DNA of 10,175 nt from Candidatus Heimdallarchaeota archaeon (GCA_030668825.1 DAOVET010000094.1:1-10175), one strand, 5' to 3'. Shown: positions 2,601 through 6,946, counted from the stretch's first letter. Program-made: numbers and translations. Notes: generated from the letters alone by a model not told the origin.

Positions 2601-2956
2601 AGAGAATGAAGTATAGAGTAGATTTTATACCTTTTTCTGAGACTGATGATCTGTCATCTGAAGAAAAAATCAGTTACATCTTATCCAAAGTAATGAGGAA
2701 CAGCATATTGGTTCTCGAAGATGGACTCTCTCACAGTGAAGAGCTTAATCTTATCGAAAGAACTATGAGTAAAATTGATTACGGAAACTTTGTAGGTATT
2801 AAGATGTTCTCATTCGAGAGCGGAGAAGACTTTAAATGGACAAAACTTTTTGGTAAAGGAACCAAGAACAAAGGATTTACTGTAGTAGCACCAAATGAAG
2901 CAGTGTCAGTAATTAAAGATAAAAGAGGTATCTTATCCATAAGAATAAGTGGATAG
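2597..2956 (+). CDS. arvB: DUF2073 / OapB / ArvB family protein
   Basis: The pattern LSSEEKI..IL..V....ILVLEDGLS..EE..LIE.TM..I....F.GI...FTVVAP matches DUF2073. A 4-nt GTGA overlap with the GTPase suggests translational coupling. The ATG at 2606 is an alternative start. Confidence 0.85.
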   Translation: MKRMKYRVDFIPFSETDDLSSEEKISYILSKVMRNSILVLEDGLSHSEELNLIERTMSKIDYGNFVGIKMFSFESGEDFKWTKLFGKGTKNKGFTVVAPNEAVSVIKDKRGILSIRISG

Positions 2957-2966
2957 ATCCTTAACA

Positions 2967-3461
2967 TTAATCTGCTAAATTTGCTAAAACTTCCTCAAAT
3001 GTTTTCTCAATGGAAACATCTGTGGAGACAACTCTAACAAGACCTTTACCATATAGTTGCATCATGTCGGTCAAAATAACTTCCATTATTTCTGCTTCGA
3101 TGTTCTCATCAATCTTTGATTCACTATAACCGCGTACCACCAGTCTCTGTCGAAGGTTATGAATCGAGCAACGAAAAACGATACATCGTGATACCAACGG
3201 TGGAGGGAGTCGCACTACATGTCCATCAAGCACAAGAGGGAAAGGTGAAGGGTTTTTTTCAATCAGTTGAGTAAGGACAGCATTCAGTTTGTTATCGTCT
3301 ATTACAAAACTATCTCGTTTTTTATCATAGGAATCATAAAGCATCTCATCTTTGATTAAATTTCCGACATTCATTACTGAATAGCCTCTAGCCTCTAGAA
3401 GATCTGCAACAGTAGATTTTCCAGTACCAGGTGTTCCAGTTAGAATATATGCTTGCTTCAT
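2967..3461 (-). CDS. Adenylate kinase AK6/Fap7-like P-loop kinase
   Basis: Walker A ILTGTPGTGKST, VLDGH Walker-B/His motif and RL..RGYSESKIDENIEAEIM. The start is moved to ATG 3461 (MKQAYILTG) because a TATA-like TTTTAAT lies 23-29 nt upstream on the minus strand. Confidence 0.9.
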   Translation of the reverse strand: MKQAYILTGTPGTGKSTVADLLEARGYSVMNVGNLIKDEMLYDSYDKKRDSFVIDDNKLNAVLTQLIEKNPSPFPLVLDGHVVRLPPPLVSRCIVFRCSIHNLRQRLVVRGYSESKIDENIEAEIMEVILTDMMQLYGKGLVRVVSTDVSIEKTFEEVLANLAD

Positions 3462-3483
3462 TGTACTAGCGTTTGTCAGCAAG

Positions 3484-3496
3484 ATTAAAAGCATTT
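3484..3496 (-). promoter_or_regulatory. Putative BRE/TATA for a leaderless AK6 transcript
   Basis: The minus strand reads AAATGCTTTTAAT, with the TATA about 25 nt before ATG 3461. Confidence 0.45.
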
Positions 3497-3516
3497 ACAA
3501 AAGAATTAAGTCACCG

Positions 3517-3570
3517 TCAGAATTTTCTGAAATTTCTGATTATTCAGAATAGTTATAAATATCTGAAAAT
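3517..3570. repeat. Phased 9-bp tandem array (TCWGA core) embedding a TATA box; putative operator
   Basis: Units at 3517 TCAGAATTT, 3526 TCTGAAATT, 3535 TCTGATTAT, 3544 TCAGAATAG, 3553 TTATAAATA (TATA) and 3562 TCTGAAAAT. The period is exactly 9 bp and the TCWGA core is self-complementary. Confidence 0.8.
3553..3561 (+). promoter_or_regulatory. TATA box of the AbrB-like/arsM operon
   Basis: TTATAAATA ends about 22 nt before TTG 3584 and about 31 nt before ATG 3593. Confidence 0.6.
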
Positions 3571-3592
3571 ATTATTTTTTTAGTTGGTAAAA

Positions 3593-3874
3593 ATGAGTGA
3601 TAAAGAACAAAGTGAGAATTGTCGCAGTTCAAGCAGCGAAGGTTCCGGATGTTGTCATGTAGAAGGTGTTGTGCAATTAGATGGTAGAGGACAAATCGTA
3701 CTTCCAAAAAATCTTAGAGAAAAAATGAATTTGAAAGAAGGAGACAAACTTGTAGTCATAAGCATGAATGAAAAAGGAAAGATTGCTAGCATATCATTAA
3801 TGAAATCCAGTAGATTTGATGGTATGGTCAAATTGTCACTCAGACCAATAATGAAGGAAATTATGCAAGATTAA
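3593..3874 (+). CDS. AbrB/MazE/SpoVT-fold protein with an N-terminal Cys-Cys motif, resembling the HgcAB-associated HgcC family
   Basis: Swapped-hairpin signature LDGRGQIVLPKNLREKMNLKEGDKL, preceded by ENCR...GCCHVE. C-terminal ISLMK...GMVK..L.PIMKEI resembles HgcC-like proteins. TTG 3584 is an alternative start. Confidence 0.82.
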   Translation: MSDKEQSENCRSSSSEGSGCCHVEGVVQLDGRGQIVLPKNLREKMNLKEGDKLVVISMNEKGKIASISLMKSSRFDGMVKLSLRPIMKEIMQD

Positions 3875-3875
3875 G

Positions 3876-4745
3876 GTGTTTCAAACGTCAGATATAGAAA
3901 AAGAAAATCTTAGAAAAGTTGTTAGAGATAGATATGGTAATGTCGCAAAGAAAAATACTTCCTGTTATGGAAGTGAAACTGAATTACAACCAAAAGAATC
4001 TTCTTGTTGTGGAACTCCGACTATAGAGGAAGTTAGTAAAGCTATAGGTTACACTTTGGAAGAGCTATCATCTATCCCTGAAGCATCCAATATGGGTTTG
4101 GGTTGTGGAAACCCAACAGCTATAGCAGAAATGAAGGAAGGAGAGGTTGTTTTGGATCTTGGCTCAGGTGGAGGATTAGATTGTTTTCTTTCAGCTAAGA
4201 AAGTTGGAACTTCTGGAAAAGTAATAGGTGTTGATATGACTCCAGATATGGTTGATTTAGCAAGAAAAAACGCACGTAAGTTTGAGTACGGTAATGTAGA
4301 ATTTAGACTTGGAGAAATAGAAAATATTCCTGTAGCTGATGACTTAGTCGATGTAATTATCTCGAATTGTGTAATCAATTTATCTCCAGAAAAACAAAGA
4401 GTCTTTAACGAAGCATTCAGAGTTCTGAAACCTGGAGGAAGAATTTCTATCTCAGATATGGTCTTATTGCAGGAACTCCCTGAATCAATTAGGAAGGATG
4501 ATAGTTATTTAGCTGGTTGTGTGGCAGGAGCAGAGCTTAAACCAGTCTATCTAGAAATGATAAAAAAAGCTGGATTTACTAATATTGAAGTTTCAAAGGA
4601 AGAGGATATTCCTGATAAAGCAAGAGATTTTGATTACGAAGATGTAGTTGAAGCTGTTGAATTTGATTCAAAAGAAGAGGAACTAGCATTCATAAATAAA
4701 GTAGTTGAAAGCGTAACTGTAACTGCTTTCAAACCAAACAATTAG
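3876..4745 (+). CDS. arsM: Arsenite S-adenosylmethionine methyltransferase
   Basis: SSCCG, GLGCGNP, SAM-binding VLDLGSGGGLDC, GVDMTPDM, ISNCVINLSPEK, LKPGGR and AGCVAGA contain the ArsM cysteines. The gene starts 1 nt after the upstream stop. Confidence 0.93.
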   Translation: MFQTSDIEKENLRKVVRDRYGNVAKKNTSCYGSETELQPKESSCCGTPTIEEVSKAIGYTLEELSSIPEASNMGLGCGNPTAIAEMKEGEVVLDLGSGGGLDCFLSAKKVGTSGKVIGVDMTPDMVDLARKNARKFEYGNVEFRLGEIENIPVADDLVDVIISNCVINLSPEKQRVFNEAFRVLKPGGRISISDMVLLQELPESIRKDDSYLAGCVAGAELKPVYLEMIKKAGFTNIEVSKEEDIPDKARDFDYEDVVEAVEFDSKEEELAFINKVVESVTVTAFKPNN

Positions 4746-4747
4746 AT

Positions 4748-5482
4748 TCATTTAAGCATCTCATCTGAAAGTTTCTTTTTACCAAAGATACCTTTCCAGA
4801 TTTTCATTTTTTTTGCTTCACCAGAACGAATTTTCTGGAAATTTTCTTTTTGTCTACTAAGCATAATTAAGGATATGCCAATAAGAAGCAAACCTAGTGA
4901 TAGGGGACAGGGAGCCCAAGGCATTAACAAATAGGTTGGTAGGAAAAAACCAATTACACCTACTAAAACTGTAACCACAATATAAGTGATCGAAGAATAA
5001 CCAATAATAGTTATAATAACTGGCCAAAAAGCAATCCAAAATCCGAGCAAAATAGGGTTAGCGAAAATTAGTGAAGCCAAAACTACGGTGATTCCTTTTC
5101 CCCCAGCAGATAAGAGATAAAGGGGCCAATTATGTCCTAGAATAGCACCCATTCCAGCAACAGTCAAGCATAAACACCATCGAATGTCAATAAATGGGTG
5201 TAATAGTATGTTACCTCCAGTTTTTGAGAAATAAAGAATGTTTGCTAGAAAGTACGGGACGATAACAGCTGTAACTGATCTACTCACATCTAGAAATCCT
5301 GCAAAATATGCCCATCTAGAAGATTTAGTTGCTCTGTAAACATTACGACCTCCTACATTTCCTGATCCAATTTTTCTTATGTCTTCTCCTGTTTTAAGTT
5401 TTGTAACTATCCAACTGAAAGGAATTGATCCGATTAAATATGAACTCAAGAAAACAAGAATATATACAACTGAAACGTGCAT
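4748..5482 (-). CDS. plsY: Glycerol-3-phosphate acyltransferase PlsY-family membrane protein (divergent)
   Basis: YLIGSIPFS, DIRKIGSGNVGGRNVYR (motif 1), ILGHNWP...GGKG (motif 2), multiple hydrophobic helices, and RQKENFQKI..GE at motif 3. Confidence 0.85.
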   Translation of the reverse strand: MHVSVVYILVFLSSYLIGSIPFSWIVTKLKTGEDIRKIGSGNVGGRNVYRATKSSRWAYFAGFLDVSRSVTAVIVPYFLANILYFSKTGGNILLHPFIDIRWCLCLTVAGMGAILGHNWPLYLLSAGGKGITVVLASLIFANPILLGFWIAFWPVIITIIGYSSITYIVVTVLVGVIGFFLPTYLLMPWAPCPLSLGLLLIGISLIMLSRQKENFQKIRSGEAKKMKIWKGIFGKKKLSDEMLK

Positions 5483-5505
5483 AACTTCAAAATTGTTCTA
5501 GCTTG

Positions 5506-5538
5506 AATAAAAGATTTACGTGTAAGCAAATTTTTATA
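5506..5538. promoter_or_regulatory. Back-to-back TATA boxes for divergent plsY and pmm genes
   Basis: Minus-strand AAATCTTTTATT lies about 25 nt before plsY ATG 5482. Plus-strand AAATTTTTATA (TATA 5531-5538) lies about 25 nt before ATG 5561. Both spacings fit leaderless mRNAs. Confidence 0.5.
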
Positions 5539-5560
5539 CATCTAATTTACCCTTAAACCA

Positions 5561-6946
5561 ATGAACAAAGATATCTCCCCTAATATATTTCGAGCATATG
5601 ATATACGAGGAATTTACAATAAGGATATCTCTCCACCATTAATGTATAAAATAGGTTTAGCCTTTGGTACATATGTTAAAAACACATTAAAGGGCAAAGA
5701 AGTTGTTGTGGGCAATGAAATTAGACAGTCTAGTATTCCATTAGTTTATTCTTTTATTTCTGGAGTAACAGCAACTGGAGTTGATGTAGTTTACGTAGGT
5801 ACAACAGCATTTGGGCAAACTCTTTATGCGGGGTGGTTTTTAGAAAAAACAGCAACAGCGTTTGTAACAGCAAGCCACCTTCCACCTGAATGGAACGGTA
5901 TAAAATTCTATCATTCAGACGGTGTTGGTTTTTCTGAAGAAGAATTAATGAAGATTAGAGATATAACTATAGAAGAAAAATATTCTATGGTGGGATGGGG
6001 AGAAATTGGAAGTTCAATTTCCTATGAGATTAAGGATAAGTATGAGGAGTTTTTCAAACAAAAATTCAGTTTTACAGAAAAAATGAAAGTTGCATTAGAT
6101 TGCGGTGGTGGTAGCACCACATTATCAGCCCCAGTAATTTTTTCATCCTTGGGAATTGAGATTACAAAAATCTATTGTGATACTGACCCTACTTTCTCTG
6201 GAAGACCATCTGATCCAAAACCAAAAAATCTAACTGAATTGGTTAAAGCAGTTACAAAGAATGGATGTAATTTTGGAGTAGCATTTGATGGAGATGGAGA
6301 TAGAGCTGTAATCGTAGATGATTTGGGAAGAATTCTCTCTGCAGATCAAACAGGAATAATTATTGGTCAGTATGGCTTATCTAAGAAAGAAGGGACGATT
6401 ATTGCAAACGTAGAATGTTCAAAATCTGTAGCCGAACAACTTGAACCCTTAGGTTATAAAGTAAAACAGATTCCTGTTGGACACACCTTTTTGACAATCG
6501 AGGCAAAAAAAGAAAAATCTCCCTTGGGTGTTGAATCTAGTGGGCATATTATTTTACCTGAATATTTTCTCTTTGATGATGCACTTGTTACCCCCCTTAA
6601 GATAGCAGAAATACTTAATAAAGAAAAGATAAGATTGTCAACTTTAGTGGATAAAATCCCAACGTATCCCCTAAGAAAGGAAGAAATTCATTGCGAAGAT
6701 GATATCAAATTTGCTGCAGTAGATTTACTGAAGAAGAAATTACTATCAAAATATGAAGATATTAATACCATGGATGGGGTTAGAATCAACTTGAAAGAAG
6801 GCTGGGTTCTAATTAGACCATCTAACACTGCACCTGTAATTAGAATGACAATTGAAGCAGACAATGAGGAAGCAATAGAAGAATTAGCAATTGAATTTAA
6901 AGGAAATCTTATGGAATCAATAATTGAGATTCAAGCACGAAGGTGA
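5561..6946 (+). CDS. Phosphomannomutase/phosphoglucomutase (alpha-D-phosphohexomutase family)
   Basis: IFRAYDIRG, phosphoserine loop TASHLP, metal loop FDGDGDR, sugar-binding ESSGH and phosphate loop LIRPSNTAP. Confidence 0.95.
   Translation: MNKDISPNIFRAYDIRGIYNKDISPPLMYKIGLAFGTYVKNTLKGKEVVVGNEIRQSSIPLVYSFISGVTATGVDVVYVGTTAFGQTLYAGWFLEKTATAFVTASHLPPEWNGIKFYHSDGVGFSEEELMKIRDITIEEKYSMVGWGEIGSSISYEIKDKYEEFFKQKFSFTEKMKVALDCGGGSTTLSAPVIFSSLGIEITKIYCDTDPTFSGRPSDPKPKNLTELVKAVTKNGCNFGVAFDGDGDRAVIVDDLGRILSADQTGIIIGQYGLSKKEGTIIANVECSKSVAEQLEPLGYKVKQIPVGHTFLTIEAKKEKSPLGVESSGHIILPEYFLFDDALVTPLKIAEILNKEKIRLSTLVDKIPTYPLRKEEIHCEDDIKFAAVDLLKKKLLSKYEDINTMDGVRINLKEGWVLIRPSNTAPVIRMTIEADNEEAIEELAIEFKGNLMESIIEIQARR

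Follow-up and report, generated by a model that had tools for sequence, protein, structure and literature searches.

A two-gene unit, hgcC-arsM, lies on the plus strand of a 10,175-nucleotide (nt) stretch of DNA from a Candidatus Heimdallarchaeota archaeon (GCA_030668825.1 DAOVET010000094.1:1-10175; the whole stretch is called the window here), with an AAA_18 kinase-like gene divergent from it on one side and a PlsY-like gene convergent with it on the other (Table 1). The first gene encodes a small protein of the HgcC family, 93 amino acids (aa) long, and the second an arsenite methyltransferase, ArsM. The ATG of hgcC (an alternative TTG start is at 3584) opens a frame that closes with TAA at 3872-3874, and the GTG of arsM follows at 3876 after a gap of 1 nt. 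We consider here the small protein, the short repeats in front of its gene, and the part that the two may play in the control of arsM.

The 93-aa protein matches the NCBIfam model NF040962, "HgcAB-associated protein HgcC", over its full length (model positions 1-70 of 70; 93 bits, cut-off 70), and it is also over the cut-offs of TIGR01439 AbrB (45.8 bits, cut-off 28.3) and Pfam PF04014, MazE_antitoxin (37.4 bits, cut-off 24.7). Its score on the Pfam MraZ model is below the cut-off (17.4 vs 23), and the Pfam scan gave no match to HTH_5, the ArsR/SmtB winged helix, or to the ArsD family. An AlphaFold model (70 relatives in the alignment; predicted local distance difference test score, pLDDT, 77.9) leaves residues 1-18 disordered, with pLDDT under 50, and then places a strand (21-28), the RGQIVLPK loop, a helix (39-44), a hairpin (52-60/63-71) and a long C-terminal helix (72-92); strand-loop-helix-hairpin is the order expected of an AbrB/SpoVT-type domain. 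A family-profile search of the PDB matched AbrB-family regulators, 5itj at E 1.7e-5 and then SpoVT and AbrB. Within the family G33, Q34 and R42 are invariant, and D30, P38, K39, G50 and K52 are also highly conserved (K39 and K52 nearly invariant); these positions fall in the loop and helix that we take to be the DNA-binding part of AbrB-type domains. The protein has exactly three cysteines, C10, C20 and C21 (ENCR...GCCH), the first in the disordered tail and the pair at the very start of strand 1. By these matches it is a member of the HgcC family and a predicted DNA-binding protein of the AbrB/SpoVT fold, with a Cys-bearing N-terminal tail.

With 356 bits, its partner is over the cut-off of 263 on the arsenite methyltransferase model NF008823, and the solved ArsM 5evj matches it at E 9.6e-36, with the aligned motifs common to both. 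C77 (GCGNP), C165 (SNCVINL) and C215 are invariant among 44 paired ArsM sequences and C44/C45 are present; from the alignment, we presume that the three invariant residues are the counterparts of the solved enzymes' catalytic cysteines. The paired ArsM proteins also carry an N-terminal SCC...SCCG motif. Judged by this homology the second gene is arsM, predicted to encode an As(III) S-adenosylmethionine (SAM) methyltransferase, and it is the only arsM over the cut-off in the host genome.

Upstream of hgcC the pentamer TCWGA (W, A or T) occurs at 3517, 3526, 3535, 3544 and 3562, in a strict 9-nt register whose sole empty slot, 32 nt before the hgcC ATG, is taken by TTATAAATA, a candidate TATA box. 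Four sites lie upstream of the box and the fifth between it and the expected transcription start, a reading of the promoter that follows archaeal promoter geometry. With one site 3' of the box and four 5' of it, a protein bound there would exclude the TATA-binding protein (TBP) and transcription factor B (TFB), or the polymerase. Triples of TCWGA in this register occur twice in the window, overlapping each other, and none of 200 shuffled copies of the window has any. Across the 2.76 Mb of the genome the triple pattern is found at the hgcC promoter, its sole intergenic site, and at one coding-region site. We rejected a wider regulon in the host genome, as this second match is inside a peptidase-like coding region with repeated Ser-Glu/Asp-Lys codons, where the triple looks like codon repetition. 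An Rfam search of the window for known RNA elements in the leader gave 0 matches.

An initial annotation of this DNA, made from the sequence alone, is upheld in its account of the locus. It had described a repeat array overlapping the TATA box; an HgcC-like, AbrB-fold gene of about 93 aa with three N-terminal cysteines and a fold unlike ArsR; arsM 1 nt behind it; and no arsR, acr3/arsB or arsC in the window. A Pfam scan of the 13 larger open reading frames (ORFs) found no ars genes in the window besides arsM.

Table 1. Features at and around the hgcC-arsM unit (window positions)
Feature	Position	Strand	Remarks
AAA_18 kinase-like gene	2967-3494	minus	Divergent from hgcC; Pfam match
Intergenic region, 98 nt	3495-3592		Common to hgcC and the divergent AAA_18 kinase-like gene; contains the promoter and putative operator (from ORF list and sequence)
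Putative operator	3517-3566		Five TCWGA pentamers, 9-nt register
Candidate archaeal TATA box, TTATAAATA	3553-3561	plus	Read from the sequence; putative TATA function
hgcC-family gene, 93 aa	3593-3874	plus	NF040962, TIGR01439 and PF04014 over cut-off
arsM, 289 aa	3876-4745	plus	NF008823 over cut-off
PlsY-like gene	4748-5482	minus	Convergent with arsM

The initial annotation had also called the module ArsR-independent and had pointed to arsR and hgcAB as genes to look for elsewhere in the genome. The host genome (90.6% complete) gave no match to HgcA and no HgcB over the cut-off, and hgcA is likely absent. ArsR, on the other hand, was found, and the first claim is an overstatement. On another contig (L027, C105; 1456-2520 and 2631-3044) a canonical arsenic pair is encoded. 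Its HTH_5 protein (137 aa) carries a CVC motif, and the gene diverges from that of an ACR3 of 354 aa, whose 277.4 bits fall slightly short of the cut-off of 282.8; arsM merely does not adjoin arsR. HTH_5 matches over the cut-off number 13 in the genome. A second AbrB-like gene (L002, C5, 1468-1722) encodes 84 aa with zero cysteines, scoring 43 bits on the HgcC model, below the cut-off, and 25.9 bits on PF04014. It directly precedes a gene for a membrane methyltransferase of the PEMT/ICMT family (1809-2390), so that here again an AbrB-type gene stands before a methyltransferase gene.

Recurrence of the pairing with arsM and hgcA

A profile search of 1.84 billion representatives returned 650 clusters at E <= 0.001 and 169 at E <= 1e-10. 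From the 586 relatives found in species genomes, one genome per species, we took the best 80 loci, ranked by likeness to the window protein and biased accordingly. The next gene is arsM, on the same strand, at 68 of the 80 and hgcA at seven; four loci are cut by a contig end within 210 nt and one has neither gene. In 62 of the 68 arsM cases the two BLAST matches have less than 100 nt between them, and one case has an intervening gene. All seven hgcA cases have an adjoining ORF with the HgcA cap-helix motif, HgcA was over the cut-off there in each of the four genomes tested, and the order at locus L049 is hgcC-hgcA-hgcB. In one methanogen-type class (that of genome G001), HgcC is over the cut-off in 54 of the 151 genomes searched, and the top 30 loci, ranked by the NCBIfam model, have arsM next in 25 cases, hgcA in four and neither in one; the hgcA locus L125 is the same place as L049. 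Among 151 genomes of the window's own phylum 26 bear HgcC, with arsM next in 24, hgcA in none and no arsM in two. The recurrent linkage to arsM or hgc genes whose lack would have told against the initial annotation is thus present in the 80-locus sample. As arsM is the context of most relatives, the "HgcAB-associated" context of the family's database name describes a minority of the family as sampled.

The distances between the HgcC and arsM model matches in the phylum sample are at most 67 nt in 17 genomes, 170-187 nt in five and about 890 nt in two. In a genome of the window's genus (L151, G200) a 39-aa ORF at 635-754 lies between hgcC and arsM and carries two Cys-Cys pairs, one in the middle and one at the C-terminal end; the 170-187-nt gap that matches it is seen in five genomes of the phylum, four of them in the window's genus, and the 1-nt gap of the window leaves no room for it. 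In G204 (L150, 1203-2006) the gap of about 890 nt is filled by a second class I SAM methyltransferase of 267 aa, and G305 has a like gap. In one further relative (L149, G245; 81-1373), whose genome is 66% complete, an HgcC-like N-terminus reads in frame into an unrelated 430-aa ORF, perhaps through fusion or as a chimera of the assembly. The arsM matches of several phylum genomes (e.g., G219, G243, G225 and G202) contain one in-frame TAA or TAG at the edge or in the interior of the match.

Clustering of all neighbors within 4 kb at the 80 loci shows arsM to be the only family that recurs across phyla (66 loci), while the others follow lineage. Other arsenic genes among the neighbors, identified by reading the sequences, include ArsC-like and ArsP-like clusters, at five loci each, and at the single locus with neither arsM nor hgcA (L073) hgcC is divergent from arsR and an ArsP_1 permease. 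These neighborhoods also bear on the suggestion of annotation pipelines, discussed in the accessible text of PMC10349881, that such proteins are type II antitoxins of the MazE/PrlF type, forming part of a toxin-antitoxin pair. The Pfam MazE_antitoxin match is over its cut-off, and there are weak NCBIfam matches to the MazE and PrlF antitoxins, far below theirs. Against these stand the genes alongside, a kinase-like gene and arsM, with no adjoining toxin gene in the window, and the fact that no toxin-like family recurs among the neighbors of the 80 loci. We therefore rejected this reading, which we regard as extremely improbable.

Conserved operator-like motif and cysteine pairs

At least two TCWGA sites are present within 200 nt upstream of the hgcC-family gene at 71 of the 80 loci, and a pair spaced by 9, 18 or 27 nt at 70 of 80, compared with 6 of 1,451 random windows of 200 nt drawn from the same loci. 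Exact 9-nt pairs have a density of 3.9 per kb upstream and 0.007 per kb elsewhere. Successive sites (122 intervals) are separated by 9 nt in 62 cases, 18 nt in 33 and 27 nt in eight, or 103 of 122 in all. Each of the seven hgcA-linked loci has at least two sites, and an exact 9-nt pair occurs at four of them. Bacterial loci have the sites placed after the -10 box of a TTGACA...TATAAT promoter; in archaeal loci they flank a TATA box of the TTTAAATA type, and an xTTTAAATAx or TTATAAATA element lies between them in the related archaeal loci examined. The phased motif upstream of hgcC-family genes is conserved across bacteria and archaea.

The cysteines are conserved as well, and neither comparative check set out in the initial annotation refuted its idea. 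Most of the relatives at the 80 loci have three Cys-Cys pairs: a first in the N-terminal tail (kept at 37 of 80 loci, with any Cys there at 66), a second directly before strand 1 (kept at 78, with any Cys at all 80) and a third in the second hairpin (kept at 68). Because the pair before strand 1 is kept in 78 of 80 while the first and third are lost in some relatives, the core motif of the family, as read from the alignment, is a Cys pair at the entrance of the predicted DNA-binding strand. The Heimdall-type clade keeps the first two pairs and lacks the third (5/5 loci; 11/11 close homologues), and the tail pattern of the close homologues is CC-x8-CC. The first pair is CR in the window protein and CC in nine of ten close homologues, making the window's HgcC a minimal, three-thiol version of the family. 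Both proteins encoded in the unit in fact lack the second Cys of their first N-terminal pair, HgcC having CR at residues 10-11 (3620-3625) and ArsM CY at residues 30-31 (3963-3968), where at least 90% of 44 ArsM relatives have CC. This shared loss may be coincidence or a joint change.

Conserved thiols beside a methyltransferase gene could also mean that HgcC is a metallochaperone or accessory subunit, whose Cys pairs would capture As(III) (or Hg(II)) and hand it over to the methyltransferase, the AbrB-like domain serving for dimerization alone. In ArsD, which delivers As(III) to ArsA, vicinal Cys pairs are the As(III) sites, and those of HgcC are like them; the two genes are 1 nt apart, suggesting coupled synthesis; the CC-x8-CC tail of the close homologues resembles the SCC...SCCG motif of the paired ArsM; and the partners of the family are two different enzymes that methylate thiol-bound metals. 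A pure chaperone would, however, have no need of a phased DNA motif that overlaps the promoter and travels with the gene at 70 of 80 loci. Conservation is also highest at the basic residues in the loop and helix through which AbrB domains bind DNA: G33, Q34 and R42 are invariant, and K39 and K52 almost invariant. The lack of an ArsD-family match in the 93-aa protein also speaks against it. Structure prediction of an ArsM-HgcC complex scored 0.00 (mark 0.32), which is no evidence either way. We consider this role unlikely, and it may coexist with regulation.

A second alternative keeps the DNA-binding regulator and changes its signal. The cysteines would sense redox state or sulfide, or hold a Zn or Fe-S center, and arsM and hgcAB would be switched by anoxia or thiol chemistry. 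In its favor, the carriers are mostly from anaerobic lineages, most members of the family have up to six cysteines per chain, enough for a cluster or a disulfide switch, and genes for other Cys-rich membrane proteins and DUF2703 are also found behind members of the family. Yet As(III) and Hg(II) are what the dominant partner enzymes act on, the other neighbors include arsenic genes (arsR with ArsP_1, and the ArsC-like and ArsP-like clusters), and the three cysteines of the window protein suit an S3 As(III) site better than a cluster. We give this reading a low probability, comparable to that of the chaperone.

A proposed thiol-based switch and its possible movement between operons

Three features, the predicted DNA-binding fold, the motif that accompanies the gene and overlaps its promoter, and the dithiol conserved where the DNA-binding strand begins, lead us to propose that HgcC is an autoregulated AbrB-fold repressor released by a thiol-binding ligand of the As(III) type. 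An HgcC oligomer would bind the phased TCWGA repeats flanking the TATA box of its own hgcC-arsM operon and block access of TBP and TFB. The ligand would be a metal(loid) that binds thiols and, since the partner gene is arsM, is most likely As(III) or methylarsenite. Held by C20/C21 (and C10), where the first DNA-binding strand begins, it would loosen HgcC from the DNA and so turn arsM on. That HgcC is a DNA-binding regulator of its own operon we consider highly probable. A role as metal(loid) sensor seems to us a little better than an even prospect, and about the same can be said of the whole chain of DNA binding, repression, ligand and release.

Near-identical proteins and operators serve hgcAB, which suggests by analogy that hgcAB may answer to the same or a similar signal. 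The hgcA-linked protein of L049 and the arsM-linked protein of L083 are identical at 73 of 91 positions, and both genes have the TCWGA motif upstream. We placed the family on a quick maximum-likelihood tree (110 rows, 76 columns) with many open forks, relying on its starred branches only; the four cut loci, L073 and L139 were left out of the partner labels and grouped as "other". The ten hgcA-linked proteins fall in four groups among the arsM-linked ones, and the starred branches force at least two changes of partner. In one starred clade (98) an hgcA-linked protein from Methanosarcinales groups with two arsM-linked ones from Methanoperedens, and this clade includes the pair identical at 73 of 91 positions; another (96) holds the window protein among six Heimdall-type rows, all arsM-linked. 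We put forward, tentatively and with rather more doubt than the switch itself, that in bacteria and archaea a single sensor-operator cassette has repeatedly changed its partner, among arsM, hgcAB and a few further genes for thiophilic metals, and that HgcC is a structurally new class of metalloregulator in which an AbrB fold with vicinal dithiols reads 9-nt phased TCWGA sites.

Several observations weigh against the proposed switch. The 9-nt register differs from the helical repeat of DNA, and how an oligomer would read such sites is not evident. A Foldseek search of the PDB with the monomer model, a poor query for an obligate intertwined dimer, gave no match at E <= 0.001, the top entries being AbrB, SpoVT and C68 at E 0.3-0.6. 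ArsM is over the cut-off in 76 of the 151 genomes of the phylum, and HgcC stands in front of it in only 24 of these 76, or about a third. The host's canonical ArsR could also act at hgcC-arsM. The window protein is a reduced form, having lost one Cys of its first pair and belonging to a clade without the third, so its sensing may differ or be weaker. Some HgcC genes precede a gene for an FTR1-family permease (L148, G184) or a cluster of DUF2703 and Cys-rich membrane proteins (L155 and L139). Finally, no experiment on the HgcC family was found in the literature searched.

The clusters at L155 (G029) and L139 (G155) encode a DUF2703 protein and a multi-pass membrane protein along with small membrane proteins that are rich in Cys and end in CC. 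Together with those of L148 and L073, these minority partners fit the handling of thiophilic metals.

Known systems and the surroundings of the locus

Compared with hgcAB-linked HgcC proteins, the window protein belongs to the same family by hidden Markov model (HMM) search and shares their size, the Cys-Cys pair before the AbrB domain and the upstream TCWGA repeats; it differs in its partner, which here and in most relatives is arsM, and in a host genome with no hgcA match. The proposed logic is that of ArsR/SmtB, in which a small autoregulated repressor heads an ars or hgc operon, Cys thiols form the As(III) site and binding brings release. The predicted fold, in contrast, is an AbrB-type barrel with no HTH_5 match, not a winged helix, and the putative operator consists of phased pentamers, unlike an ArsR-type operator. 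The canonical ArsR(CVC)-ACR3 pair is moreover a separate system in the same genome.

With AbrB, SpoVT, MraZ and MazE the protein shares its N-terminal domain, which is over the cut-off on AbrB models, and it adds to this the N-terminal Cys tail and the long C-terminal helix. The MraZ operator consists of short repeats with a 10-nt period that overlap the promoter; the putative HgcC operator is alike, except for a period of 9 nt. We know of no member of these families that acts as a metal(loid) sensor. ArsD has vicinal Cys-Cys pairs as likely As(III) ligands and is likewise a small protein encoded beside an arsenic-handling partner, but HgcC has no sequence match to ArsD and has instead a predicted DNA-binding fold and a conserved operator motif. 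HgcC is a catalogued, uncharacterized family and probably a new structural variant of the metal(loid)-responsive repressor. To it the window adds a minimal, three-Cys HgcC from an Asgard archaeon, with no hgcA match in the genome and an unusually regular array of five sites.

It has been reported that hgcAB is directly preceded in 112 genomes by a "putative transcriptional regulator" (McDaniel et al. 2020, PMC7438021), and that a gene annotated as AbrB/PrlF/MazE lies directly upstream of hgcA, mostly in archaea, where it was proposed as a regulator within a toxin-antitoxin frame (Zhang et al. 2023, PMC10349881). As far as the accessible text of the two papers goes, both genes are probably NF040962 HgcC, an equation that follows the papers' descriptions, not their sequences. 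The initial annotation had suggested that HgcC-like proteins may be general regulators of genes for metal(loid) methylation; the linkage to arsM and hgcA stands, but the idea is not new for hgcAB, being already in these two papers. The arsM side looks unpublished. The literature searched, with subscription journals and supplementary tables outside it, held no paper that ties an HgcC-type protein to arsM, describes a TCWGA operator or discusses the cysteines. An ArsR-like, arsenic-responsive regulator of hgcAB has been described in Pseudodesulfovibrio mercurii ND132 (bioRxiv 10.1101/2022.10.17.512643), and a signal shared by arsM and hgcAB fits that control, so far as the accessible part of the preprint describes it.

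Control of hgcAB and of anaerobic arsM bears on the production of methylmercury and methylarsenic, and the regulator tested so far is the ArsR-like protein of one bacterium. If the thiol-based sensor proposed here is correct, it would bring a new fold into the metalloregulator families, and a defined operator (TCWGA in 9-nt phase) with a 90-aa protein would make it readily testable. It would also mean that arsenic and mercury methylation are linked by one control cassette from Asgard archaea to Chloroflexota. A cassette moved between arsM and hgcAB would further place the mercury-methylation genes of many archaea and bacteria under the signal, probably of arsenic type, that governs arsenic methylation.

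Apart from hgcC and arsM, 12 of the 13 larger ORFs of the window match other Pfam families, and the last, which is cut, matches none. They are of housekeeping type and include genes for an M24 peptidase, a sulfotransferase, a GTPase, the origin-associated protein OapB, a phosphomannomutase, a CxxCxxCC protein, and FBPase-like and aldolase-like proteins. The GTPase gene overlaps that for OapB (PF09846, 84.5 bits) within 1986-2956. Four to five Heimdall-type loci share the order OapB, kinase, PlsY-like, phosphomannomutase around hgcC-arsM, so the position of the module in this clade is stable, perhaps close to a replication origin. Coverage of the unit in run X18, guessed to be RNA but marked as probably DNA, is limited to two short pieces away from the operon junction. 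DNA nearly identical to positions 2900-5600 (pieces of at least 99%) is found in contigs of cold-seep and sediment metagenome runs (X11 and X14), from studies not marked as a possible source of the window DNA.

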